Below, piece by piece: positions 1 through 14,108 of a stretch of 36,690 nucleotides of DNA. The notes beneath the pieces are model-generated. The model worked only from the letters and a program-made list of their open reading frames with translations. It had not been told where the DNA came from and made no database searches. Within the stretch, counting starts at the first letter, position 1. Every line of letters starts with the position of its first letter. The translations under genes were made by a program, and so were the position numbers. Source of the DNA: a virus; the UHGV virus genome UHGV-0304565; one strand, 5' to 3'.

Positions 1-19
1 TTAAACAACCTCTGTTCGC

Positions 20-47
20 AATGCCCGGCAACACGCTGGGCATTTTC
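20..47 (+). terminator. Possible intrinsic terminator at the window edge
   Basis: Inverted repeat aatgccc (21-27) / gggcatt (39-45) followed by tttt. Alternative reading: start of a minus-strand ORF (ATG at 47-49) running off the left edge. Confidence 0.3.
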
Positions 48-83
48 ATATAGACACAATCCCTCCTGATTTACACAAGCCCT

Positions 84-98
84 AAAACAATTTGTTTT
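84..98. promoter_or_regulatory. Palindromic element AAAACAA-T-TTGTTTT (early-region operator-like site, copy 1)
   Basis: Perfect 7-bp inverted repeat with 1-bp spacer, read directly; member of a recurring family. Confidence 0.45.
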
Positions 99-116
99 CT
101 ACCTTTTGTTGATTGA

Positions 117-148
117 GATAATAAGCCACATAAGAAAACAAATTGTTT
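117..148 (+). promoter_or_regulatory. Putative early promoter: -10 GATAAT (117-122) plus palindrome AAAACAA-A-TTGTTT (135-148)
   Basis: -10-like hexamer 13 nt upstream of the palindrome, same spacing as at 2621-2655, 3104-3139 and 4773-4805; directly upstream of SD taggag and ATG 160. Confidence 0.45.
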
Positions 149-159
149 AGGAGATGAAG

Positions 160-402
160 ATGTTTGGAACAGCAAAAGAAATCATCGAGAAACTGAAAAA
201 CTATCCAGAAGACGAACCCTTACTCATGGTTATGTGGCACAAAGAAGATATTGCTGAAGTAAGGACAGATCTCACTGATGAACAATGCGTACAGGTGATG
301 CAAAAAATCAGACAATGCCATAACGCTGATGTCGGCGTTAATTGGGAGGTTATATCAACTACGGCGAATGAGTTGTTTCCGAACGGGGTGGTAAAATGCT
401 GA
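160..402 (+). CDS. Hypothetical early protein (80 aa)
   Basis: ORF track 154..402; ATG 160 preferred because SD taggag (148-153) abuts ATG 154 but sits 6 nt before ATG 160. No recognisable motif. Confidence 0.6.
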   Translation: MFGTAKEIIEKLKNYPEDEPLLMVMWHKEDIAEVRTDLTDEQCVQVMQKIRQCHNADVGVNWEVISTTANELFPNGVVKC

Positions 403-584
403 AACTCACCAAATTGTATAAGACGACAGTTAGTAGCCCTACCCTCGTTACACAGCATGGCTCTGAGTGTCTACCAAATATCTGTTTCGAGCACCATACG
501 ATCTCGGACTCAATTGGGTACAGAAACGGAGTATGGGGGAGTCAGGGGAGGGAAGAAAAGCTGCGTGATTACGGTGCCACATAG
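396..584 (+). CDS. Hypothetical protein (62 aa), start overlaps previous stop (ATGCTGA)
   Basis: ORF track entry; GGGGTGG SD-like sequence 6 nt upstream; start/stop overlap suggests translational coupling. No motif support. Confidence 0.3.
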   Translation: MLKLTKLYKTTVSSPTLVTQHGSECLPNICFEHHTISDSIGYRNGVWGSQGREEKLRDYGAT

Positions 585-696
585 CAAACCATCAAGAACA
601 TTCGAAAGGTGCTCGATGTAGGATTTGATGCGGTACAATTCCACCCTGACGCTGAAATAGACGATGGTCTGGAAAATTGGAAATTGTGAGGGATAA

Positions 697-1095
697 ATGA
701 AATATGCACCATTGGCACTAATATTTTTTGTGCTTTCTGCTAATGCCACGCCAGTTGAAGAGCCTAACACTATCGTGTACCCACGATGCATGAAAATAGA
801 TCCGGAAACACACAAGCAATTACCTGGTTACAATATTGTTATGGATATAGGGAATAAATTTAAAATCGTTTCCCCAAATGGGAATTCGGTGATATCCATC
901 TCGCTTGCCCAAAGTGAAAAAGATAGGAACATGTTCGACGCCTCAGTCGGCGATGTTTACTTCTCTCGTTACCATGTTCAACCTGATGGGAACTTTCTAT
1001 ACTCAGCCTGGAGTGAAAAGGCGAAAGTTACAGTGCTGTGTAATGGTAAAAGCGGTGAGCGGCATTACGTTGACCCTATTCATTTCGAGAACTGA
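697..1095 (+). CDS. Hypothetical secreted protein with Sec-type signal peptide (132 aa)
   Basis: N-terminus MKYAPLALIFFVLSANA-TPV: hydrophobic core plus A-x-A signal-peptidase site; SD gaggg upstream. Confidence 0.6.
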   Translation: MKYAPLALIFFVLSANATPVEEPNTIVYPRCMKIDPETHKQLPGYNIVMDIGNKFKIVSPNGNSVISISLAQSEKDRNMFDASVGDVYFSRYHVQPDGNFLYSAWSEKAKVTVLCNGKSGERHYVDPIHFEN

Positions 1096-1303
1096 CTACA
1101 CAAGTAAACAAATCAATCAGTTGATAATGGCGGTCACAATTTGATTCTTTCTATAAGAATCCGTTGATCGCCACTACTCTCCTTCCATACCTGCAACCAC
1201 ACCTTTAAATATCAATAGGTTAACGTTGTTTATACCAATAAGAAAACAACTAAATAACAGATCAACGAAACGTCAACGCTTTCACCCGATTTGGTCTAAA
1301 AAA

Positions 1304-1333
1304 TTGACGTTTTCACACACCACTGCTTATACC
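1304..1333 (+). promoter_or_regulatory. Putative sigma70-type promoter (-35 TTGACG, 18-nt spacer, -10 TATACC)
   Basis: Hexamers read directly at 1304-1309 and 1328-1333; it faces into the A+C-rich tract. Confidence 0.4.
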
Positions 1334-1505
1334 CGTAATTCTACGCAGCAGACAGCGCCACAGCGTCCAATTTTCACCACAGACGACCCAACACACTACC
1401 AACAAAAACACACGCTCAAAATCGCTCCCGTTGCGTTACATAACCATATAAACAACTTATTTTCAGGTATAACAAAACAACCAAATAACACATATGCCAT
1501 TACCA

Positions 1506-1590
1506 AAAACAACCAACCTCTTTATGGCAGGCTACCGAAAAGACCCACCTCTTCTTCCCAGGCTACCGGACAACCAACCTAACTTTCACA
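1506..1590. repeat. Copy A of a degenerate ~80-bp repeat (ACCAACCTCTT ... CAGGCTACCG ... ACCCACCT ... GGCTACCG ... AACTTTCAC)
   Basis: Aligns by eye at roughly 80 percent identity with 4683-4755. Confidence 0.5.
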
Positions 1591-2088
1591 GGCAATTCGA
1601 AACTTCCATACGCGCGATACCCACGACACGCCATTACCCAAACAGCGAAGAAACACCAGAATCACTGAAACCCCAACGAAGCCTGTAACCGCAAGGTTTC
1701 TCTCAATCCCAAAAGACACGAAACATAACAATCACGGGAAACGCCATTACCCAATACACGAATAACTACAAAAGCCCTTCACACACTCCAGACAAACAAC
1801 TCAAACACAATAACGAAAACAATCGCCCACCTGCCATTACTCCATATACGGAGAAGAACAATCACCAAAACGACGAGAACACCCCATAGAATAACCACCG
1901 CAAAACGAACGAAACCACATACACCGACAGAGAAAACAACACACCCAATTCACCAACAGAAATAGTCGCCGTATAGAACATTCTGGAAGGAGTGAGCATT
2001 AACGCCTATAGAGAGGTTGAGACAGATAAAACACGAAGAAAACACAACATGTATAGCGAAGAAGCCAGGTATGTATAAGTGGGGAGGG

Positions 2089-2113
2089 AAGGAGGGGTGT
2101 CGCCTCCTTTTTC
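2089..2113 (+). terminator. Intrinsic terminator
   Basis: Stem aaggagg (2089-2095) / cctcctt (2103-2109), 7-nt loop, T-run 2108-2112. Confidence 0.55.
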
Positions 2114-2175
2114 GTATTTATTCAACTACTGATTTTATCCCCCGTAACACCCCTACGGTCAGCCTTCGGTCCATA

Positions 2176-2310
2176 CAGGGAAAAGGCTGCATCCCGCTAC
2201 AGAAACGGCTGGGTTGCCTTCGGGGAACGGCTGGAGGTTTTCAGGGAAACGGTCGAGTTGCCTGTGTGGATTTCGGGAAAAGGCTCGATGCCGGTTCAGG
2301 AACGGCGGCG
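2176..2310. repeat. Iteron-like array A: six copies of cAGGGAAAcGGCTg-type repeats
   Basis: Copies start at 2176, 2199, 2221, 2242, 2274, 2297 (spacings 23, 22, 21, 32, 23 bp), roughly two helical turns apart. Confidence 0.6.
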
Positions 2311-2620
2311 TACCGGTATAGCGAGAGGGAGAGTTGCGGCTACCCACCTGTAATGTGCGGGAAGAAGAGAGGCGCTCACGTAGGCGGACTTGCTTACCGC
2401 TGGATTCCCTCTGAATGCCCAGCTACAGCGTAATTGTGCCAGAGAGTCAGCGGGTCACAATCGATTTCAGTAGGTTTTCGGGGAGAGGATTATTCTGCCC
2501 ACCAGCCACCTTCGGCCACTAAATCAGAATAATGTAAAAAGTGTTCTCGGTACTGAACCTGAAAACTCACTGCCAAAACCACATTCACCGGAATAAAATC
2601 CTTTTTCGCCTTTGCGTTAT

Positions 2621-2655
2621 TGCGATAATAACGCCAACAAGAAAACATGTTGTTT
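2621..2655 (+). promoter_or_regulatory. Early promoter-operator module: extended -10 TGcGATAAT (2621-2629) plus palindrome AAAACA-tg-TTGTTT (2642-2655)
   Basis: About 35 bp (CGATAATwAACrCCAACAAGAAAACA..TTGTT) is shared with 4772-4805. Confidence 0.5.
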
Positions 2656-2667
2656 AAGGATTGCTTT

Positions 2668-2997
2668 ATGTTTGCAAATATCGACATCAACCAAATCAAG
2701 AAATTAACTCAAAAAGAGTTTGATCAGTTTTATGAGTTAGAAGGTTGGTCTTCCACTCTGATTAATTCGCGGTGGGTGCTTGAGCTGATGACTCGTGATG
2801 ACGCACCTGCTTTGATGATTTGCGACATGGGTGAAGATGCTGACTTTATGGATATGAGCGAATTTTGTGTGGACACATACAACCGCAGCCAGAAGTACTA
2901 CTTCACATGCGATAGCGAGAATGACGTGATTTCTAAGGTCTATCTTCACCTTGTCCAGCATTGGGACGTTCAGGAGTTTCTTGAAGTATTCGCGTAA
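2668..2997 (+). CDS. Hypothetical strongly acidic early protein (109 aa)
   Basis: ORF track 2647..2997; ATG 2668 preferred (SD aagga 2655-2659, 8-nt spacing; ATG 2647 lies inside the palindrome). About 20 percent D+E. Confidence 0.55.
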   Translation: MFANIDINQIKKLTQKEFDQFYELEGWSSTLINSRWVLELMTRDDAPALMICDMGEDADFMDMSEFCVDTYNRSQKYYFTCDSENDVISKVYLHLVQHWDVQEFLEVFA

Positions 2998-3103
2998 CCT
3001 CAACCAAAGCCAGCATTGCTGGCTTAACTTCTCTGTGGCCGCAGGGAAGAACCTGCATATCGCTCATGCACCTGATCAATATGCTTTGTAGCCGTTTTCT
3101 TAC

Positions 3104-3139
3104 TGGTATTATTTACGCCATTGAGAAAACAAGTTGTTT
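3104..3139 (+). promoter_or_regulatory. Early promoter-operator module: extended -10 TGgTATTAT (3104-3112) plus palindrome AAAACAA-G-TTGTTT (3126-3139)
   Basis: Same -10-to-palindrome spacing as the other copies. Confidence 0.45.
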
Positions 3140-3150
3140 ACGGAGTTGTG

Positions 3151-3462
3151 ATGAAGAAATCATTGGTTCTTGGTCTGGACAAAGACCAGAAGAGAAAAGA
3201 GAAGCCTGCGCTGGTTGCTCAATTAACTTTGCTGGACATCGTTGCCAATGGAACCTCTATTCGTCTGTTCCGTGAAACAGCGGTGTCTTTCGATAAAAAC
3301 ACCTTTACTCGTTATGTAATGAATGTTCGTCGCCAGCGTGGAAAAGGCTGGGTGGCATTTCAAAGAATGTGGCCGGAACATCAGCTCGAACTGGCTTTGA
3401 TGGAAGTTAACCGCGTGGCCCAGCAAGAAATTCAGAGAGCATCAGTGATGGCAATAGCCTGA
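3151..3462 (+). CDS. Hypothetical early protein (103 aa)
   Basis: ORF track 3121..3462 starts on TTG inside the palindrome; ATG 3151 with SD acggag preferred. Confidence 0.5.
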   Translation: MKKSLVLGLDKDQKRKEKPALVAQLTLLDIVANGTSIRLFRETAVSFDKNTFTRYVMNVRRQRGKGWVAFQRMWPEHQLELALMEVNRVAQQEIQRASVMAIA

Positions 3463-3496
3463 TAATGTGCAAGTGGTAATTAGTCGACAGTACGAC

Positions 3497-3524
3497 AGCC
3501 CCGCCATCCTTACGGGGCTTTTTG
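3497..3524 (+). terminator. Intrinsic terminator
   Basis: Stem agccccg (3497-3503) / cggggct (3513-3519), 9-nt loop, T-run 3519-3523. Confidence 0.7.
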
Positions 3525-3587
3525 TATTGTAAGTACATACTTACGGTTATAAAATAGAAAAATAACCAAGACACTACGGAGAGTGAA

Positions 3588-3983
3588 ATGACCGTTAAAC
3601 GCGAAAAACTGACAGTTGATGTTTACTATGCCTCTGAAACCGCCGAAGGTAAGAATGTGGCAAAAATCACCGTTGTTACGTACAACACCGAAACTGGTGC
3701 CGAAGTCCAGGCCAGTACGATCGTGCGTAAAGGTGATGCCTCCGGCGGCGAGTACGCGACTCAATACCAGTCTATTTTCGATGCAACTGACCCGCTGCTG
3801 CTGAAAATCGAGAACTACTTCCGCCAGGTTGATGAAGAGGTGTTTGAAACCATGATGAATATGGTTAACACCGTATTCGCCTCCAGCCTGAATACCAACA
3901 CTACCTGGATTGGTCAGTACGGCCTGCGCATTACCTCCGGCATTCCTGCTGACACCTTAATCCCTGAAAGCGTATTCGCTTAA
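3588..3983 (+). CDS. Hypothetical early protein (131 aa)
   Basis: Strong SD ggagag 6 nt before ATG; flanked by terminators on both sides. Confidence 0.65.
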   Translation: MTVKREKLTVDVYYASETAEGKNVAKITVVTYNTETGAEVQASTIVRKGDASGGEYATQYQSIFDATDPLLLKIENYFRQVDEEVFETMMNMVNTVFASSLNTNTTWIGQYGLRITSGIPADTLIPESVFA

Positions 3984-3992
3984 TCCTCTTTA

Positions 3993-4020
3993 AATGGCGC
4001 GTAAACCGCGCCATTTTCTT
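3993..4020 (+). terminator. Intrinsic terminator
   Basis: Stem aatggcgcg (3993-4001) / cgcgccatt (4007-4015), loop taaac, then ttttctt. Confidence 0.7.
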
Positions 4021-4027
4021 ATGCCCG

Positions 4028-4042
4028 ATAACAATTTGTTTT
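4028..4042. promoter_or_regulatory. Palindromic element AtAACAA-T-TTGTTTT
   Basis: Family member upstream of the 4101 gene. Confidence 0.4.
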
Positions 4043-4100
4043 CTGCCTTATCTGATTTGTGAAAATGATTTCACTGAAGCAACTTAATAAGGAAACCATC

Positions 4101-4475
4101 ATGGGGCTTGATATCTACATCGAGACGCAGCCAAAAAACGATCTGAATAACGATACATCCAGAAAGCGGGTTGCTTACTTCCGTAAGTTCAATGCACTCG
4201 TTGGGTGGATGGAGCGCAACGTAGGTGAAGTCGAAAATTGTGAGCTTTTAGAATTAACGATGAATGACATTTGTCTTCTGAAAGCTCATTTGATGCACAT
4301 AAACGAAAGTAATTGCGAAGAGTACTTGCCTACCCGGGAAGGTTTTTTCTTCGGCAGTCAGGAGTACGATGAAGGTTACTGGCATGATGTGGGGGAGTTG
4401 AAAGAGCTTGTGGAAGATCTGATTAAGAACCACGACTTTCACAATAACAGACTGACCTTCTGCGCCTGGTGGTAA
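4101..4475 (+). CDS. Hypothetical early protein (124 aa)
   Basis: ORF track 4059..4475; ATG 4101 preferred (SD aagga 4090-4094, 6-nt spacing). Confidence 0.55.
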   Translation: MGLDIYIETQPKNDLNNDTSRKRVAYFRKFNALVGWMERNVGEVENCELLELTMNDICLLKAHLMHINESNCEEYLPTREGFFFGSQEYDEGYWHDVGELKELVEDLIKNHDFHNNRLTFCAWW

Positions 4476-4477
4476 AT

Positions 4478-4621
4478 ATGGGCGATTTCAAGAAACGCCT
4501 GAAGGAAAGAGCCGAGATGGTCAGAAAGCAAAACGCCTCTTCTGTCATCAGATACGCAAGGCAGTTTAGTCGCAACAACAAATCAGTTGAGGAAAAGATC
4601 CTTAGCGTAATCGGTCGATAA
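4478..4621 (+). CDS. Possible small protein (47 aa), absent from the ORF track
   Basis: ATG 2 nt after the previous stop; GGTGG 5 nt upstream; followed by hairpin aaggcca/tggcctt (4627-4650). Below the 60-aa track cutoff. Confidence 0.25.
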   Translation: MGDFKKRLKERAEMVRKQNASSVIRYARQFSRNNKSVEEKILSVIGR

Positions 4622-4682
4622 TTATTAAGGCCATCAGCATTGGTGGCCTTAAATGACCATCCTGTTTCCCGCAGGCTAAAAA

Positions 4683-4755
4683 CACCAACCTCTTACCTCC
4701 AGGCAACCGACAAACCCACCTGTTCCCGTCCGGCTACCGCAACTTTCCACTTTGA
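4683..4755. repeat. Copy B of the degenerate ~80-bp repeat
   Basis: See 1506-1590. Confidence 0.5.
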
Positions 4756-4805
4756 CGCCTTATTCGTACAACGATAATTAACACCAACAAGAAAACAATT
4801 TGTTA
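4752..4805 (+). promoter_or_regulatory. Early promoter-operator module: -35 TTGACG (4752-4757), -10 GATAAT (4773-4778), palindrome AAAACAA-T-TTGTTA (4792-4805)
   Basis: Hexamers and palindrome read directly; 15-nt spacer is suboptimal. Confidence 0.5.
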
Positions 4806-4825
4806 TTTACGATAAGGAATTAATC

Positions 4826-5308
4826 ATGAATTTTATCGCTACTGTAAACGCACCCGCACATGGCAATATCGCTGTAACGTTCTCTGACATTGAAAAACGA
4901 GTACTTGGTGCATGGCGCGACAATGAGACGGTAGAACTGTCAGCACAAGAAAAATGCATTATTGCACGCGACATCATTTGTAATTGTCGTTACTCGCGGG
5001 TAATTGAGAAAGCGTATGTGGTAAATTCTGGATTCGGAACGTTCGTCTTTCCGGTGCGCTCCGGGCGATTCTGCCAGTCCAAGCTGATTGAGTTCGCTAC
5101 GCAGATTTCTGTCTGGATTAAAACTCAATCGTCGTTCAAATTTTCCGACGATGAAGCATTATCGCAGGGGATGCGGATCGCCAACAATGCAATTAAATGC
5201 AAAAACATTACGTATACCGCTGGCGTTGATACATGGAAACTGTTTTGCGCTAACTTTATGCTGAATGTATACGCAAGCAACCGCATCCACATCCTTGATG
5301 GCGTGTAA
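4826..5308 (+). CDS. Hypothetical early protein (160 aa)
   Basis: SD aagga 7 nt before ATG; weak hairpin plus ttctct downstream (5319-5343). Confidence 0.6.
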   Translation: MNFIATVNAPAHGNIAVTFSDIEKRVLGAWRDNETVELSAQEKCIIARDIICNCRYSRVIEKAYVVNSGFGTFVFPVRSGRFCQSKLIEFATQISVWIKTQSSFKFSDDEALSQGMRIANNAIKCKNITYTAGVDTWKLFCANFMLNVYASNRIHILDGV

Positions 5309-5343
5309 CTGAGAAGAGGGCCAGAAACGGCCCTTTCTCTATA

Positions 5344-5475
5344 GCCACCAGCTGCCGCAGGGAAATTTTCAGAAACGGCGAGGAACGTATTCATGAGCCG
5401 ACGGGGAACGGCCAGGATTTTTTCGGGAAACGGCTGCATTCGCCTTTATATAGAAAAAACATCGGGAAGCTGGTG
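5344..5475. repeat. Iteron-like array B (GGGAAACGGC-type repeats) flanked by inverted Chi-like octamers
   Basis: Repeat copies at 5359, 5370, 5381, 5402, 5424, 5463 (11/22-bp phasing); CCACCAGC at 5344-5351 and GCTGGTGG at 5468-5475. Confidence 0.55.
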
Positions 5476-5845
5476 GAATCCAACCAGCGGTTGTCGGACA
5501 GGTGAGCGGGGAAAATTATGATGACTTTCGTCGCCTGAGACATCCAGATTTCTTTCGTAGCGTAATCACATACGTGATTAAGTGGTGTGATTATGTGAAA
5601 AATCACGCGCACATAATACGCGAGCGGATACGGAACAAAACAAAATGCCGATCCGCGCCGACAATTAAACGCGGATCACATAGCAAGAATAAAAGCCAAT
5701 GATTAACCATACACCATAACGCAATATAACGCGATTTAAGCGCGTTAATGCGCTAAGTAATGGGTATATACTGGTAAGGATATAAAAGCGCGTCTGTGGC
5801 GTTATTTTGGCGCTTATTTTATGTTGTTGGAGTGAGTTAAAGACA

Positions 5846-5873
5846 ATAAAAAACGCGCCAATGATGGCGCGTT
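5846..5873 (-). terminator. Intrinsic terminator (minus strand), first of a tandem pair
   Basis: Stem aacgcgcca / tggcgcgtt with loop atga; A-run on the plus strand 5846-5851 gives a U-run on the minus transcript. Confidence 0.6.
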
Positions 5874-5893
5874 ATGGTGGAAGTATTGGAAAC

Positions 5894-5918
5894 GAAAAAA
5901 GCGCCCATAGTGGGCGCT
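5894..5918 (-). terminator. Intrinsic terminator (minus strand, possibly bidirectional)
   Basis: Stem agcgccca / tgggcgct (5900-5918), loop tag, plus-strand A6 before and tttta shortly after; the same 19-mer recurs at 6396-6414. Confidence 0.6.
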
Positions 5919-5923
5919 CGATT

Positions 5924-6154
5924 TTATTTATGTAAACTGATTTCAAATCCCATTTCTACAAACGCTTTTAGCATTAAAAATATATCAGCGTCATTCACGT
6001 CTGCTTTTTTCCGCTCCTGGTCGCTCAATAAGTCAATTTTGCGCGTCGTTTCATCTATAAGCTCGACTGCGCGCCCAGCGTAACCAGCGATCCCAGCGAT
6101 GCGATTAACATAATATTCATTATGGACGTTAACGCCAGCGATAAGAACAAACAT
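5924..6154 (-). CDS. Hypothetical protein (76 aa)
   Basis: SD aaggag upstream on the minus strand; last gene before the tandem terminators. Confidence 0.55.
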   Translation of the reverse strand: MFVLIAGVNVHNEYYVNRIAGIAGYAGRAVELIDETTRKIDLLSDQERKKADVNDADIFLMLKAFVEMGFEISLHK

Positions 6155-6174
6155 GATTAAGCTCCTTAAAAAAA

Positions 6175-6378
6175 TTAAACAGAATTTTGAAGTTTTCCGA
6201 TTAATGCGCTTAAACGTAAATATTCACGTTTACGCTTACAATCTCGTTTACTGTTAAGCAAATCAGAAAACGTAAAATTTAATTGGTCGCGTTGCGCGAT
6301 CAAATCATCGATTAATTCCAGTTTATAAGCGCGATACTTTGCGCGATATTCCGCGCGGATCTTGTCATAGCTGACCAT
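6175..6378 (-). CDS. Hypothetical protein (67 aa)
   Basis: ORF track 6175..6423; internal ATG at 6378 preferred because the first 15 codons span the 19-bp hairpin and an SD aggag precedes the second ATG. Confidence 0.5.
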   Translation of the reverse strand: MVSYDKIRAEYRAKYRAYKLELIDDLIAQRDQLNFTFSDLLNSKRDCKRKREYLRLSALIGKLQNSV

Positions 6379-6426
6379 TTTTAAAGCTCCTTTAAAGCGC
6401 CCATAGTGGGCGCTTGATTCCATTAA

Positions 6427-7077
6427 TTACGCTTTGAAAGCATCAGCTAAATAATTGTAGAAATCATTTTTAATGAAGCGATATTGCTGAGTACCAGCTT
6501 TCGCGCTCCCAGCTCCTTTGACTTTTTCAACAAGTCCGAGACGTTCGCAAAGATTGATCAACTGGTTGGCTTGAGTATAGCCAGCGTCCAATTTAATCTC
6601 GCACGCTTTTTTGGCTTCATTCATTAAATCGAAAACAGCGCCATTCGTGAACGTGTCGATCTCGTCGTTAATCATATCGATTAAAGCGAATACACGAGAT
6701 CCAGACATATCAGCGACGGAATAAACACACTTTCCAGCTTTAATGGATTTAACCAGATAAACCAGTTTTTCCAGTGAATAACTATTAGTCATAGCATCAC
6801 GGAAAAATACTTCTGGCGCTTGTTTGCTTGCTTTAATTGCATAGTAGAAAACAGAGCATAATTTTTCGTCTTCAACAGCGTTTACAACGTTGTTGATGAA
6901 GTAAGCAAGTTTAGTGGTTGCAGCTTGCATATTTGCTTTGTCTGCTTTAGTGTGCGTACCATTTTTATAATGTTCGTTATATGTTTGAGTTGCCAGATCT
7001 GCTTTTTCGCGCAGCTCGTCGGATACAATGGCAGCAGCTTCAATGATGGATTTTTTAGAAATGATAATGTTAGCCAT
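6427..7077 (-). CDS. Hypothetical protein (216 aa) with a helix-turn-helix-like C-terminal segment
   Basis: SD aagga 8 nt upstream; C-terminal YTQANQLINLCERLGLVEKVKG looks like a DNA-binding helix pair (pattern judgement only). Confidence 0.55.
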   Translation of the reverse strand: MANIIISKKSIIEAAAIVSDELREKADLATQTYNEHYKNGTHTKADKANMQAATTKLAYFINNVVNAVEDEKLCSVFYYAIKASKQAPEVFFRDAMTNSYSLEKLVYLVKSIKAGKCVYSVADMSGSRVFALIDMINDEIDTFTNGAVFDLMNEAKKACEIKLDAGYTQANQLINLCERLGLVEKVKGAGSAKAGTQQYRFIKNDFYNYLADAFKA

Positions 7078-7374: not shown

Positions 7375-7896
7375 TTAAAACGGAAGGATTCGTTCAACCC
7401 AATCGAAGAAAATAAGTATTTTTCTACCGTCTTCCAACTTAAGTGTGACTAGACAGGCGTCAACGCCATCTGACGTTCCCTCAATTTCGCGACCGTCTGC
7501 CATGTAGACCCTTATAGATTTGCCGTTTTGGTAAGCCTGACGACATATCTTAAAAAAGTCACGACGTGATGGCTGATTAACCATCTGTTCATTGTTTAGC
7601 GTTAGTCGACCTGTGAATGAAGTGTCAACCTCTTCTATGCCCGACTCAATTGTGCTAATGCGCTCAAGAGGGAGCCTTATACGATTTGTGTTGCTAAGCG
7701 GATCTGGTGTGAGGTTCAGCTTATTTCTTGCGCTCAATAGCCCGTAGACATACATGCAAAACACTTGGCCGTCTTCGAGAGTGACTCTTACAGGAAATTT
7801 TGCACTCCGCCAGAAGAGCAAGGTGCGCTCAGCATGTTCGTAGTCTCGCGGCCAGACTTCAGCCGGTATGCCGTAGGTGATGTCCAATGTTCTCAT
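7375..7896 (-). CDS. Hypothetical protein (173 aa)
   Basis: Start overlaps the stop of the upstream gene (ATGA); hairpin aataaccgg/ccggttatt downstream at 7338-7365. Confidence 0.55.
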   Translation of the reverse strand: MRTLDITYGIPAEVWPRDYEHAERTLLFWRSAKFPVRVTLEDGQVFCMYVYGLLSARNKLNLTPDPLSNTNRIRLPLERISTIESGIEEVDTSFTGRLTLNNEQMVNQPSRRDFFKICRQAYQNGKSIRVYMADGREIEGTSDGVDACLVTLKLEDGRKILIFFDWVERILPF

Positions 7897-10552: not shown

Positions 10553-10572
10553 ATAAGTAAGTGATTACTTAG
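10553..10572. promoter_or_regulatory. ATAAGTAA-family motif with inverted repeat (AGTAA-gtga-TTACT) in the divergent intergenic region
   Basis: Read directly; adjacent TATAAT at 10548-10553. Confidence 0.4.
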
Positions 10573-10589
10573 TGGATTGTAGCAATAAA

Positions 10590-11270
10590 ATGGATGTAAA
10601 AATCACGATTTTGCAGGTTGATGTTGTCAACCTTCGCCCGAATACCTGGAACACCAATTCGGTTGGTGCGCAGAATTTTGAAAAACTGAAAGGTTCTATC
10701 GAAAAATTGGGCTTTTTTAAGCCAATTTTGGCTCGTGAACTTGAAGATGGATTTTTTGAAATCCTCGGCGGCGAACATCGCTGGCGTGCTGCTATTGAGC
10801 AAGGAATTTCAACGGTTCCGGTGCTTTCTGTGGGCAAAATTAGCGATGTCGTGGCAAAACAGATGTCACTGGTGGACAACGAGCGATACGGTGAAGACGA
10901 CCAAATCGCATTGCAACGCTTCATTGAAGAAATTCAGTCAGAACTTGACTATCAACTGTCTGAAATCGCCCCGTATGACGACGAAATCTCGATGGTTTTA
11001 GCAAAAGAGGCGGCAATCGACCTTGAAGCACTGGAGGCGTTGTCTCGTGGTAGTGATGAGCCTGTCGATACCGACAAACGAGAGAAAACCGAACGTGTGG
11101 GTGCGGAACATCAGACCATGCGCTTCAAAGTAACTTTCGATGCGTCAGATCGTGTTGCAGAAACCATAAAAAACATCATCAAAGAGCAGGCTATTAACAC
11201 CGGTAATGAAATGGAGAACGCTGGTGAGGCTCTGGTGTGGCTGGTCGACTACTACAAGGAGCGTATGTAA
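10590..11270 (+). CDS. ParB/Srx-like N-terminal domain protein 1
   Basis: ILGGEHRWRAA resembles the ParB GERRxRA box. ORF track starts at GTG 10572; start uncertain. Confidence 0.6.
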   Translation: MDVKITILQVDVVNLRPNTWNTNSVGAQNFEKLKGSIEKLGFFKPILARELEDGFFEILGGEHRWRAAIEQGISTVPVLSVGKISDVVAKQMSLVDNERYGEDDQIALQRFIEEIQSELDYQLSEIAPYDDEISMVLAKEAAIDLEALEALSRGSDEPVDTDKREKTERVGAEHQTMRFKVTFDASDRVAETIKNIIKEQAINTGNEMENAGEALVWLVDYYKERM

Positions 11271-11938
11271 TGACCAAAAAGTTTGAAATCGTATATCGCG
11301 ACCCGGCAGATCTTATTCCCTATGAGATGAATGCCAAAAAGCATGATGAACAGCAGATCCGAGATCTGGCCGCAGCCATTAAAAAGCGCGGATTTGACCA
11401 GCCAATTACGGTCGATAAGAACGACGTAATTATTACTGGCCACGGCCGCCGTGAGGCTGCAATTTTTGCTGGACTTGAGCGCGTACCGGTTATTGTTCGC
11501 GATGATCTCAGTGATGACGAGGTTCGTGCGAAGCGCCTTGAAGATAACCGACTTGCCAGCATTGATTACGATGCAATTAAGCTACAGAAAGAGCTTGAGT
11601 CGCTTGTTCTGGACGATATCGAGGTTTTCGGCTTTGAAGAGCGTGAGTTGAATGTTCTCGTTGGCAGTATGACAGAAGAAATGGACACCGACTCGCTAGT
11701 TATCGATCTTGGCGAAGAAACTAAACGACAGAAGGATGAACACACCGAGATCAGTCGTGAAGTTGCAGCGGAAGAAGTACGTGTTGTCGACGTATTGGGC
11801 TTTAAAACGCTCCCTGCTGGCTCTGCCATTGTTGTTGGTGATTTGCTTGCCCATATGGAAGAAATGACGGGAGAAAGCGGGGTAGACGCATTTGTGGCAT
11901 ATGCGGAGAAGATCTCTTCCGGGGAGATGGCTGCATGA
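11270..11938 (+). CDS. ParB/Srx-like domain protein 2
   Basis: ITGHGRREAA motif; ATG overlaps the previous stop (TAATG); SD aaggag 9 nt upstream. Confidence 0.6.
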   Translation: MTKKFEIVYRDPADLIPYEMNAKKHDEQQIRDLAAAIKKRGFDQPITVDKNDVIITGHGRREAAIFAGLERVPVIVRDDLSDDEVRAKRLEDNRLASIDYDAIKLQKELESLVLDDIEVFGFEERELNVLVGSMTEEMDTDSLVIDLGEETKRQKDEHTEISREVAAEEVRVVDVLGFKTLPAGSAIVVGDLLAHMEEMTGESGVDAFVAYAEKISSGEMAA

Positions 11939-12573
11939 GCAAATACATCATCAACGTATCGTTTCAGACACGCGTAAATAAAACCACGCGCACGTTGGAA
12001 ATCGCTGAGTCGTTCGGGCTTGGCCTGGACGAAAAAGAGTGGACGCTTTACGACAATCTGGAGCTGGAAGTGAAGCAGGGCGATGTGGTGTACATCACCG
12101 GCCAATCCGGTTCCGGCAAATCCGTTGTGCTGCGCGAGTTGCAACGACAGATGAAGGATGAAGGGCTGTCTGTAGCCTCCATCGATGATTTTACCTTCGA
12201 TAATGAGGTTAACGTCATCGATCAGTTGGGCAAAACGACCAGTGATGCGCTTGGGTTGTTATCTATGGCTGGTCTGAACGATGCATATCTGTTTGTTCGC
12301 AAGCCTTCTGAAATGTCAGACGGCCAGAAATATCGTCTCAAGATTGCCAAACTGATTGAGTCAGGCGCTAAAGTATGGGCTGCTGACGAGTTCGGCGCTG
12401 TTCTAGACCGTGTAACCGCTCAGGTTGTGGCGTCTAACCTCCAGCGTGCCGCTCGAAAGGTTGGTGCGACGGTAATGGTGGCGACGACTCACGAAGACCT
12501 GAAGAACGCGCTGCGCCCGGATATGCAGATCACCAAGCACTACAAAGAACGCGTGAAGGTGGAATATGCCTGA
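11935..12573 (+). CDS. ABC-type ATPase (minimal nucleotide-binding domain, 212 aa)
   Basis: Walker A GQSGSGKS, signature-like SDGQKYRL, Walker B VWAADEF, H-loop ATTHED; ATGA overlap with the upstream gene. Confidence 0.7.
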   Translation: MSKYIINVSFQTRVNKTTRTLEIAESFGLGLDEKEWTLYDNLELEVKQGDVVYITGQSGSGKSVVLRELQRQMKDEGLSVASIDDFTFDNEVNVIDQLGKTTSDALGLLSMAGLNDAYLFVRKPSEMSDGQKYRLKIAKLIESGAKVWAADEFGAVLDRVTAQVVASNLQRAARKVGATVMVATTHEDLKNALRPDMQITKHYKERVKVEYA

Positions 12574-12820
12574 TTTGAAGATCGTAGAGCTGAAGCCATC
12601 GAAAGAGACTGATAACAACAACGTGGAAGTCATCCGCCTGCTGGAAGAAGCACTTCAGCACGCCAGAGAAGGAAAAAGCCAGAGCCTGGCGCTGTTGATG
12701 ATCAACAACGACGGCAGTGTTCTTGATTGCTGGCATAACGGCGGGCGCCCGTATGTCATGGTAGGGGCGATGGAGTCTCTTCGCCTGGATTTCATCAATG
12801 CCAATATCGAGCGCAGGTGA
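12566..12820 (+). CDS. Hypothetical protein (84 aa)
   Basis: Overlaps the ATPase stop; SD aaggtgg upstream. Confidence 0.55.
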   Translation: MPDLKIVELKPSKETDNNNVEVIRLLEEALQHAREGKSQSLALLMINNDGSVLDCWHNGGRPYVMVGAMESLRLDFINANIERR

Positions 12821-12825
12821 TCGAC

Positions 12826-13716
12826 ATGGCAGATATCATCATCAAACGCTACCGCCCTGAAGAGTTTCCGCGTCATCTGGACTTTCTGGAGCGAATGACT
12901 GTCACAAAGGGAACTGTAGAGGACTGGCACGCTCTTAAGTCGCTTCACTACAAAACAGACGGCAAACCTTTCGCGCCAACATACTATCGCTGCGAACTGG
13001 ATGACCGTCTGGTGGGCGTCGTGGTTATGGCTTACCCGAAACTTCTGCTGGCACCTCGCCATCGCATGTTTCCTAAGTTGAAACCAACCACCAATACCAC
13101 CGTGGCTAACCAGTACTGGGGCCGGTACGTGAATAACAACTTTGCGGTGATCAGCCGCTCAGTTGTGGATACTCAGTACCGTGGCGTAGGCGTCTCTTAT
13201 CGAATGATTAACCTGGTTAGCAGGATGCATGACCGGCCAATCATTGAGATCCAGTCATCGATGAGCAAATACAATCCCTTCGCCATGAAAGCAGGGTTTA
13301 AGTTCATCCGCCCTGAGCGACCGAAGAGCTATGAAAGTGCACTGCGTGTGTTCCAGCGCCATTTCCGCTCCGACCCGGGTGATAACGAGGCGATCGTCAA
13401 AGAGTTGTTCGCTATGAGCGAGTCTCGTCGTCGCCGTGCACTGCGTGATCTGGTGGCGGACTACCACAAAAACAGTTCCCTGGCAAAAGCTGGGCGGAAT
13501 CGTGGCACGACGATTCAGGACATTGCCGACAGTCTGGTGGACGAGGCCAGCATTGTGAAGCTGCTCAAGGACATTCACAACCTGAGCTTTACGTCTCCGT
13601 TGTATGGTGTGTATCGAAACCCTGACTTTGGTCGTCGACTGCCTGACACGCTGCCACTGCTGGCATTCGACAAACAACCTTTGGATAAACCGTTAGAAAT
13701 TGCTTTACCGGCATAA
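12826..13716 (+). CDS. GNAT-like acyltransferase-fold protein with C-terminal extension
   Basis: GNAT motif A-like QYRGVGVSYRMINLV and motif B-like NPFAMKAGFKF. ORF track starts at GTG 12817 overlapping the previous stop; ATG 12826 used. Confidence 0.5.
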   Translation: MADIIIKRYRPEEFPRHLDFLERMTVTKGTVEDWHALKSLHYKTDGKPFAPTYYRCELDDRLVGVVVMAYPKLLLAPRHRMFPKLKPTTNTTVANQYWGRYVNNNFAVISRSVVDTQYRGVGVSYRMINLVSRMHDRPIIEIQSSMSKYNPFAMKAGFKFIRPERPKSYESALRVFQRHFRSDPGDNEAIVKELFAMSESRRRRALRDLVADYHKNSSLAKAGRNRGTTIQDIADSLVDEASIVKLLKDIHNLSFTSPLYGVYRNPDFGRRLPDTLPLLAFDKQPLDKPLEIALPA

Positions 13717-14071: not shown

Positions 14072-14108
14072 CTTCGTAAGACATGCCAGACCTAATTAAA
14101 CACCCCAG

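Follow-up and report, generated by a model that had tools for sequence, protein, structure and literature searches.

The viral DNA stretch UHGV-0304565, whose 36,690 nucleotides are here called the window, carries a short degenerate repeat at two non-coding places near its left end, and our comparative analysis shows this repeat to be a genuine cis-acting signal that purifying selection has strongly preserved throughout the SSU5 family of phage-plasmids. The selection is evident from the core positions of the repeat, which are near-invariant while the synonymous sites of the neighbouring gene are saturated. Each copy is a cluster of three tandem units, all on the + strand (cluster A at 1509-1599, cluster B at 4653-4740). 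In kind the element is a conserved cis-regulatory repeat, for which the likeliest answers on mechanism are conventional ones, and its function is most likely the control of where transcription stops. We favour, with a probability of slightly above one in three, a strand-specific RNA element that loads Rho, probably together with an additional specific factor, while a protein-binding array on double-stranded DNA is nearly as likely. The window itself is part of an SSU5/pHCM2/pMT1-type phage-plasmid, because its first 6 kb are 97% identical to Escherichia phage Cyrano (the phage-plasmid pLF82) and match Klebsiella phage-plasmids and Salmonella phage SSU5 more weakly; CMS-2020a and PhiR41_1 also match.

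An earlier note on this DNA had described a degenerate repeat of ~80 bp with ~80% identity, and its two copies truly align. Copy A and copy B are 72.9% identical over 85 nt (blastn, E = 1e-8), and the MAFFT alignment of 1495-1600 with 4670-4765 has a mean column identity of 79%. The local alignment score of the two copies is 50, compared with 16.3 +/- 2.65 (maximum 34) for 2000 dinucleotide-preserving shuffles, none of which (0/2000) reached 50; the objection named beforehand, that the alignment might score no better than shuffled A+C-rich sequence, thus falls. The description of the repeat has to be revised, however, in that each copy is really a row of three tandem units of ~30 nt, with an identity of 73-79%, and copy B starts at 4653 rather than 4683, i.e. 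30 nt earlier. The strings quoted in the note were all located in both copies, some of them as variants: ACCAACCTCTT at 1512 and 4684, ACCCACCT at 1543 and 4714, CAGGCTACCG at 1528 and 1559 with the variants CAGGCAACCG at 4700 and CCGGCTACCG at 4730, and AACTTTCAC at 1581 with its counterpart AACTTTCCAC at 4741.

The units follow each other with a period of 28, 29, 30 or 31 nt. In cluster A the first unit (ACAACCAACCTCTTTATGGCAGGCTACCGA, 1509-1538), which is conserved in relatives, and the second (AAGACCCACCTCTTCTTCCCAGGCTACCGG, 1540-1569) both score 40 bits with a position weight matrix and match the pattern ACCNACCT-N8-CAGGCTACCG exactly, and the third (ACAACCAACCTAACTTTCACAGGCAATTCG, 1570-1599; 28 bits) is in every lineage the degenerate one of the cluster. 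The first unit of cluster B (ATGACCATCCTGTTTCCCGCAGGCTAAAAA, 4653-4682; 32 bits) has its 3' ACCG replaced by AAAA, its stretch TTTCCCGCAGGCTAAAAAC being nearly invariant over eight diverged lineages. The second (AACACCAACCTCTTACCTCCAGGCAACCGA, 4681-4710; 38 bits) is the best-conserved unit of the family and nearly invariant, and the third (CAAACCCACCTGTTCCCGTCCGGCTACCGC, 4711-4740; 35 bits) is degenerate and 7 nt longer in Klebsiella-type lineages and deleted in one. The unit consensus reads A..ACC(C/A)ACCTCTT-N5-CAGGCTACCG-AAAA. In the logo of 101 unique units the conserved positions are A1, A4 C5 C6 (C/A)7 A8 C9 C10 T11, T13 T14, C17 and C20 A21 G22 G23 C24 T25 A26 C27 C28 G29, followed by an A-run, with A21, G22, G23, C24 and A26 invariant at 94-100%. 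Allowing up to three mismatches, the pattern ACCNACCT-N8-CAGGCTACCG occurs four times in the window against 0.04 expected. Both strands of the 36.7-kb window and ~98 kb of Cyrano were searched without finding a further copy of the unit. The units have no dyad symmetry.

Relatives were gathered with the exact pattern from IMG/VR and from species-representative genomes, followed by a weight-matrix scan. IMG/VR gave 93 contig stretches, on contigs mostly of 50-110 kb, and among the species-representative genomes the pattern was found in Kluyvera, Buttiauxella, Dryocola and the Yersinia pestis plasmid pMT1, amid the expected single chance hits. The weight-matrix scan showed the same architecture almost everywhere, with 2-4 units in cluster A and 1-3 strong units in cluster B. 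The two clusters keep their order and orientation across the family at a separation of 1.4-4.2 kb, and SSU5 itself has both. By blastn the element is present in 878 PLSDB plasmids, 840 of them non-mobilizable, from Klebsiella, Escherichia, Enterobacter, Yersinia, Salmonella, Citrobacter, Cronobacter and Shigella. It is also present in 239 of 5,426 complete E. coli genomes, where it is always plasmid-borne and never chromosomal, and in nearly all of these 239 E. coli plasmids PGAP annotates no feature under it. The element is absent from Rfam, unannotated and, as far as the searchable literature goes, undescribed; searches with the motif strings returned unrelated primer matches only and no description of the motif.

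Some variation in this distribution should be mentioned. The copy number of cluster A differs among the relatives, with four units in three of them (L013, L044, L100) and two in others (L005-L008). In Yersinia pestis pMT1 (L124/L155) only cluster B and the gene for a 160-amino-acid protein downstream of it are kept, and the whole A+C-rich module around cluster A is absent. Tandem units were also seen on a 604-bp contig of a Catenulispora yoronensis assembly (L158) and in a Bacillota metagenome-assembled genome (L129); these actinomycete and Bacillota occurrences most likely stem from DNA of enterobacterial phage-plasmids that contaminated the assemblies or was mis-binned.

The strength of conservation was judged for cluster B in eight lineages, in which the neighbouring 160-amino-acid protein has diverged to ~67% identity, and for cluster A in nine lineages. 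In the gene for this protein, 14% of the third codon positions are invariant over the eight lineages, i.e. synonymous sites are saturated. In the same lineages hardly any change is seen in the middle of cluster B (TTTCCCGCAGGCTAAAAACACC(C/A)ACCTCTTACCGCCAGGCTACCGA), which is as well conserved as the operator and -10 box of the promoter beside it, and conservation of cluster A is likewise high. Cluster B lies upstream of all 57 of the 57 unique homologues of the downstream gene (at 4826 in the window) that were collected. The motif is among the most conserved non-coding sequences of the family, and it stands at two fixed points of a hypervariable cassette region.

The composition of the clusters is strand-biased, and of all our results this one discriminates best between the possible mechanisms. 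Overall, cluster A contains 36% C and 14% G and cluster B 41% C and 14% G; when all 92-nt windows of the 36.7 kb are ranked by C content, cluster B falls within the top 0.06%. At the variable columns the values are C 48% and G 11% in cluster A and C 44% and G 15% in cluster B, while in the flanking non-coding DNA C is about equal to G (C/G 0.27/0.25 and 0.22/0.22). Because neutral sites nearby are saturated, the excess of C over G is being maintained, and it is meaningful only on a single strand. Both clusters provide the ~80 nt or more of C-rich, G-poor RNA expected of a Rho utilisation (rut) site. They are also as poor in structure as such a site should be, with minimum free energies of -8.4 and -9.6 kcal/mol per ~92 nt and z about 0.

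Several other explanations were tested and do not hold. The note had suggested a shared binding site or an RNA motif; the strong family-wide selection supports an element of this general kind, while the proposal is too generic as a mechanism and a folded RNA is not supported (z = -0.26 and -1.28, the latter due solely to a hairpin upstream of cluster B). A covariance scan of 1-6500 against Rfam gave nothing at E <= 1 except two sub-threshold chance hits at 5838-5922. A coding repeat or leader peptide was rejected as well, since the places where reading frames over cluster A begin and end differ among the nine lineages, a start codon is not conserved, and units spaced by 28-31 nt do not stay in one frame. 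No complementary RNA acting in trans was found, the anti-unit sequence being absent from the window and from 98 kb of Cyrano.

Both clusters are found, in Cyrano coordinates, at ~94.5-98.3 kb, the distal end of a 37-kb + strand gene block, 33 kb from repA, ~40 kb from parA (CYRAN_28) and ~10 kb before the terminase genes. The neighbourhood is an array of small genes without assigned function, each with its own promoter, operator and 3' hairpin, and the operator is a palindrome, GAAAACAAnTTGTTTTC, placed over the start of the 5' untranslated region (UTR). Cluster B is preceded directly by a stem-loop with a 9-bp stem in the minimum free energy structure, AAGGCCATC-AGCATT-GGTGGCCTT (4627-4650, + strand). 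Over 16 distinct sequences 97.9% of the cells of this hairpin are paired, three pairs are changed on both sides and the loops vary, and ten G-U intermediates pair on the + strand RNA only. No U-tract follows it. Synteny breaks directly upstream of the hairpin and cluster B.

On the other side of cluster B, its last unit ends 11 nt before the TTGACG (4752-4757) of the promoter-operator of the 4826 gene (4752-4804, + strand), which agrees with the earlier placement of copy B just 5' of the -35 hexamer. This promoter further comprises GATAAT/TAATTA at 4773-4780 and the operator GAAAACAATTTGTT at 4791-4804, a member of the GAAAACAAnTTGTTTTC family, and its blocks are conserved in the eight lineages; it was predicted by reading the sequence, and a simple consensus scan did not list it. 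The 4826-5308 gene encodes the 160-amino-acid protein, for which a confident model was obtained (predicted local distance difference test, pLDDT, 91) that has no structural neighbour and no recognisable nucleic-acid-binding fold. In LF82 lysogens its homologue CYRAN_111 is modestly expressed, and CYRAN_110, just upstream of cluster B, is near the floor, according to RNA sequencing of cells in LB, in medium and in macrophages (PMC9928086).

Cluster A lies, as had been noted before, within an A+C-rich (T/G-poor) non-coding locus of ~1 kb (1126-2112, + strand), delimited by composition and a nine-lineage alignment and keeping its block architecture in all lineages. The locus begins with an invariant 47-nt block at 1126-1172, GTTGA(T/C)A..TATAAGA..CCGTTGATCGCC (also written GTTGACATTGGCGGTCACAAATTGA..TATAAGA..CCGTTGATCGCC), followed at 1304-1333 by TTGACG-N17/18-TATACC. 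An operator-like palindrome, ATAAACAACTTATTTTC (1448-1464, + strand), which belongs to the family of small-gene operators and forms an invariant AAACAA.TTGTTTT block in nine lineages, is located 45 nt upstream of the cluster. Motifs of the type GCCATTACC occur at 1495, 1630, 1743 and 1833, the first of them preceding the three units and the three later ones reading GCCATTAC(Y)(Y)CA(W)A(Y)RCGGAGAA. The locus ends with a conserved G-run, GGGGAGGGAAGGAGGGG, and then a terminator-like hairpin at 2086-2112. It has no conserved reading frame and no excess RNA structure (z = -0.67 for a 781-nt stretch). The nine-lineage alignment showed no promoter-like sequence downstream of cluster A, and the terminator scan gave no terminator-like hairpin between the upstream gene (697-1095) and the locus. 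For CYRAN_103, an open reading frame (ORF) annotated across cluster A, virtually no reads were obtained from LF82 lysogens under the three conditions above. The A+C-rich locus may specify a long non-coding RNA made in the lytic phase, or may work as DNA, for example as an origin.

The features of the clusters resemble those of Rho substrates, and the Rho-loading element is favoured because the excess of C over G, the lack of structure, the variable spacing, the co-orientation and the U-less hairpin on the + strand match Rho-dependent 3' ends. With no terminator-like hairpin between the 697-1095 gene and the A+C-rich locus, an untranslated C-rich RNA there would be an expected Rho substrate. 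The classical rut example is rutA/rutB of lambda tR1, and rut sites are normally not conserved in sequence. At E. coli Rho-dependent 3' ends Dar and Sorek found a U-less stem-loop with C-over-G enrichment and the rut site directly downstream of it (PMC6061677). Like these terminators, the clusters are ~90 nt long, C-rich, G-poor, unstructured and untranslated, and cluster B in addition has the covarying U-less stem-loop directly upstream, at the end of a transcription unit; a stem-loop of this kind is absent at cluster A. The units are co-oriented with the surrounding + strand genes in all of more than 90 contigs. The unit spacing is variable, and the distances from the clusters to the neighbouring promoter and operator vary between lineages; both are easier to accommodate for a single-stranded ligand than for a phased duplex array. 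The clusters differ from ordinary rut sites in consisting of three tandem units with a near-invariant bipartite core and an invariant AGGC, where rut sequence is unconserved, and in the use of one motif at two sites; they have no significant similarity to lambda rutA/rutB, and their Rho dependence is putative.

We infer that the clusters are transcribed through, that termination there depends on Rho and that an extra factor takes part. Each cluster would then be a ~90-nt strand-specific signal acting in the + strand transcript as a C-rich, G-poor, structure-free platform, to which each unit would supply two conserved ACC-containing blocks, ACCnACCUCUU and CAGGCUACCG. Three units with two ACC blocks each make six blocks at ~15-nt spacing, which could fit the six primary sites of the Rho hexamer. 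As rut-type sites loading host Rho on untranslated RNA, the clusters would set up a pair of polar barriers within the early region. At cluster B, acting as a terminator or insulator, transcription from the upstream cassette would stop just before the separately regulated 4826 promoter, and trimming would leave the transcript with its 3' end at the conserved U-less hairpin (4627-4650). At cluster A the operator-controlled, ORF-less A+C-rich transcript would be attenuated within its leader, ~50-150 nt from the start. A further sequence-specific factor, from the phage-plasmid or the host, would read the CAGGCUA/ACCnACCU core and modulate termination at both sites; such a factor is proposed because the motif is conserved far beyond the bulk C-richness that suffices for Rho.

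A number of points weigh against a Rho-loading element. Rho alone does not explain why A21, G22, G23, C24 and A26 should be invariant at 94-100%. The virtual absence of reads over CYRAN_103 and the near-floor level of CYRAN_110 in LF82 lysogens would confine an RNA role to lytic growth. There is no protective hairpin upstream of cluster A, and the hairpin upstream of cluster B also occurs without the cluster (in pBL12EC-1), which itself travels with the downstream gene (57/57). Tandem direct repeats beside promoters are usually protein-binding sites on DNA, and the pairing of each cluster with a G-rich array at a fixed distance of ~700 bp, described below, looks like DNA-level architecture. 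Nor does the similarity to lambda rutA/boxA/rutB exceed what is expected from composition.

The strongest competitor is a double-stranded DNA array, which we consider tentative but nearly as likely as Rho loading. A protein would bind the bipartite units (ACCnACCT and CAGGCTACC) cooperatively, with about three helical turns per unit, and the complex would regulate the adjacent operator-controlled promoters or form a boundary or looped structure, possibly with the G-rich arrays 700 bp away. Two such arrays are present, the only ones in the genome: array A' (2176-2320, + strand; about six ~22-bp units with the core GGAAACGGC) lies ~700 bp downstream of cluster A, and array B' (5345-5435, + strand; about four units of the GGAAACGGC family) ~700 bp downstream of cluster B, past the 4826-5308 gene and its terminator. 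Their spacing is iteron-like. Each C-rich cluster is thus the left border and each G-rich array the right border of a module of ~0.8 kb, and the distance between the two is ~700-780 bp in both modules and in every lineage examined, with colinear similarity blocks. The interiors are unrelated, one being the A+C-rich non-coding stretch and the other the gene for the 160-amino-acid protein; the former is not recognisable as a decayed copy of the latter, as no profile hit was obtained.

Besides the near-constant module borders with unrelated interiors, a DNA-binding array would account for the unit periods of 28-31 bp, near three helical turns, next to G-array periods (21-24 and 32 bp) near two turns. 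It would also account for the near-invariance of specific bases, the only G residues included, for the closeness of both clusters to operator-controlled promoters (no more than ~50 bp, with A following the 1448 operator and B preceding the TTGACG at 4752), and for the maintenance of cluster A although it is not transcribed in lysogens. On the other hand, no candidate binder was found: the confident model of the 160-amino-acid protein has neither a DNA-binding fold nor a structural neighbour, two nearby ParB_N-domain proteins are silent in the plasmid state, and RepA and ParA are encoded 33 kb and ~40 kb away. Furthermore, the units lack dyad symmetry, spacings of 28-31 bp shift the rotational setting by up to ~100 degrees, and it is hard to see what the persistent C-over-G bias at unconstrained positions would do for a site read as duplex. 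The 4826 promoter seems able to work by itself, and no such array accompanies the ten other promoters that have an operator of the GAAAACAAnTTGTTTTC family. An activator site for the 4826 promoter in particular is unlikely, considering that no promoter lies downstream of cluster A and that the distance from the best unit to the -35 box differs by 7 bp between lineages. Direct pairing of the C-rich clusters with the G-rich arrays was rejected, as the duplex energies were just 1-2 standard deviations better than those of shuffles, i.e. compositional, and a weak inverted resemblance between GGAAACGGCTGGGT and the reverse complement of ACCCACCTCTTCC depends on poorly conserved positions of the G-units. 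The consensus sequences of sigma-54, sigma-E, sigma-32, CRP, DnaA and other host factors were compared by eye with the units; none fits all of them, and such comparisons are leads rather than tests.

Plasmid arrays such as the P1 incC/incA iterons and parC of R1 and pB171 resemble the clusters in being tandem direct repeats, with two arrays flanking a short gene or transcription unit, an array beside a promoter, and conservation across a plasmid family. They differ in the unit length (11 or 19-22 bp vs 28-31 bp in the clusters), and the clusters are not beside rep or par genes, have no AT-rich unwinding element and are strongly strand-biased in composition; moreover, the two arrays flanking each module differ in sequence (C-units vs G-units). 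Plasmid iterons were rejected in view of the period of 28-31 rather than 17-22 bp, the distance of 33 kb to repA and the C-rich surroundings without an AT-rich element; a near-DnaA box, TTACCCACA, precedes cluster A in some lineages, not in the window. A partition centromere does not fit either, with parA ~40 kb away and no units near it, no dyad symmetry, and the nearby ParB_N genes silent in lysogens.

Returning to RNA, a more specific form of Rho control can be imagined, in which the clusters are nascent-RNA sites for a dedicated SSU5-type factor that switches Rho-dependent termination on and off, a hairpin-less counterpart of the lambda N utilisation (nut) sites gating the two ~0.8-kb modules. 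We regard this as unlikely. If true, the gated modules would be a conserved A+C-rich long non-coding RNA of ~0.9 kb and a gene without known fold, each insulated module having a C-rich array at its left end and a G-rich one at its right end.

Slightly less probable still is antitermination or RNA protection of the nut/boxA kind, where the CCUCUU-containing units would recruit Nus or a phage-plasmid factor and polymerase would pass Rho-dependent and intrinsic stops, giving a long A+C-rich RNA and read-through into the 4826 gene. The two co-oriented copies in two transcription units recall nutL/nutR of lambda or the boxA elements of rrn leader and spacer, and like these the units are linear, pyrimidine-rich and contain CUCUU, with ACCUCUU(U)A resembling boxA GCUCUU(U)A. 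From known Rho biology, ~800 nt of untranslated, unstructured C-rich RNA would also be expected to need protection from Rho. The G of the GCUCUU core is, however, replaced by C, so that the boxA consensus (C/U)GCUCUU(U)A is not matched, and the units read ACCUCUU, ACCUGUU or ACCUAAC (CCUAAC in the third unit) with positions 12-13 ~70% conserved. The dominant and best-conserved block, CAGGCUACCG, has no counterpart in boxA, the units have no boxB-type hairpin, and alignment with lambda nutR-tR1 is no better than with shuffles (342 and 371 of 1000 reach the score). No N-, Q- or NusG-like gene was recognised.

That the clusters are recombination boundaries or relics of duplication is doubtful, being several times less probable than a protein-binding array. 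They would be left over from duplication of a module (C-cluster, ~600 bp, terminator, G-array), or serve as patches of homology for exchange. This would agree with the two colinear similarity blocks, equally spaced in both modules, with the varying gene content and separation (1.4-4.2 kb) between the clusters, and with the break of synteny directly upstream of the hairpin and cluster B. Recombination alone cannot maintain near-invariant islands of 30-50 nt beside saturated non-coding DNA and synonymous sites, and the order, orientation and internal logo of the units are kept from Yersinia pMT1 to Klebsiella. In pBL12EC-1 an extra cassette has been inserted between two copies of the hairpin, which favours exchange in this region; the junction is at the hairpin, though, and not within the units. 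As this insertion shows, the 4627-4650 hairpin is a 3'-end element of cassettes that can occur without cluster B, while cluster B always travels with the downstream gene (57/57 loci).

The small-gene cassettes end in related hairpins (window 4627-4650 and 3006-3026; L163 400-900) of the forms AAGGCCAyC-N6-GGTGGCCTT and AAGCCAGCATTGCTGGCTT, and because the pBL12EC-1 cassette sits between two hairpin copies, these hairpins mark the junctions of cassette exchange. In most relatives the hairpin loop and 3' arm form an exact Chi site, GCTGGTGG, in place of which the window has GCATTGGTGG. The arrangement is similar to the T4-type PeSL (promoter-early stem-loop) cassettes that Arbiol et al. are said to have described in 2010 for hyperplastic regions, in that small-gene cassettes have a conserved 5' promoter/operator, a related 3' hairpin and a gene content that varies between relatives. 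It differs in that the C-rich units do not occur in every cassette, just twice, at two conserved core modules.

The least probable reading, an element like the operon polarity suppressor (ops) of RfaH on the minus strand, through which leftward transcription could recruit RfaH, can be practically dismissed: although CGGTAGCCTG, the reverse complement of the second block, matches nine of the ten bases at positions 3-12 of ops (GGCGGTAGCGTG, the consensus reportedly given by Bailey in 1997, Artsimovitch and Landick in 2002 and Zuber in 2018), the units lack the two G residues at the 5' end of ops (C is found at unit positions 30-31 in just 5% and 33% of units), and conservation is inverted, with the invariant G22 and G23 falling on the non-conserved nn/C9 of ops and the critical C3, G4 and G5 on those unit positions that are conserved least (76-81%). 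Within the + strand block, moreover, neither cluster has a minus-strand gene or a scan-detectable promoter to its right, and the leftward operon ends behind four terminators at 5919-5606. A regular ops (GGCGGTAGnnTG on the non-template strand downstream of a promoter) was rejected likewise, there being just CGGTAGCCTG on the minus strand with the 5' GG missing.

Some further observations concern the surroundings of the clusters. The operator-like 17-mer GAAAACAAnTTGTTTTC occurs in the window at 83, 134, 1448, 2641, 3125, 4027, 4791, 8918, 14108 and 14133, and in nearly all small early genes it is placed after the -10 box and before the Shine-Dalgarno sequence; the copies at 14108 and 14133 are just 5' of the small terminase gene (14188), and further copies are spread across the Cyrano genome. 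The family has the look of operators at which one global repressor would control the lytic genes. At 7375-7896 on the minus strand the window encodes a full-length FljA homologue (PF03614, E = 1e-68), which is expressed in LF82 lysogens. FljA is the repressor of phase-1 flagellin, and proteins of this type block translation of fliC mRNA (PMC2652032). It is tempting to speculate that the FljA-like protein may be the factor reading the palindromic operators, as a lead and not a result. The 5' UTR of E. coli fliC has 74% identity over 27 nt to the operator/5' UTR of the 4826 gene (4794-4820; E = 0.77, insignificant) and shares the 12-mer TGAGCCGACGGG with G-array B' (5394-5405), which is likewise weak and statistically insignificant.

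Directly upstream of the terminase genes, at 10572-13716 of the window (CYRAN_119-122), there is an operon of two ParB_N-domain proteins and ABC-type ATPases. Its silence in lysogens, where the true parA and repA are expressed, shows that it has a lytic-phase function and is not the plasmid partition system. In relatives, the region just left of the window (L001 967-3000, CYRAN_100) encodes a full-length methionyl-tRNA synthetase and also a MinD/Mrp-like ATPase, which is expressed in lysogens.

Phage-plasmids of the SSU5/pHCM2/pMT1 type are common in clinical Klebsiella, E. coli, Enterobacter, Salmonella Typhi and Yersinia pestis and carry resistance genes, and almost nothing is known about the regulation of their early region. 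The motif provides a compact sequence signature for detecting this plasmid family, and its six units with two invariant cores are a precise handle for mutational work. Should the clusters be targets of a DNA-binding protein, they would mark the target sites of a regulator. If they control termination by sequence-specific loading of Rho, they would represent an unusual and tractable case of a conserved, modular rut site, and would also point to a regulatory long non-coding locus in these phage-plasmids.

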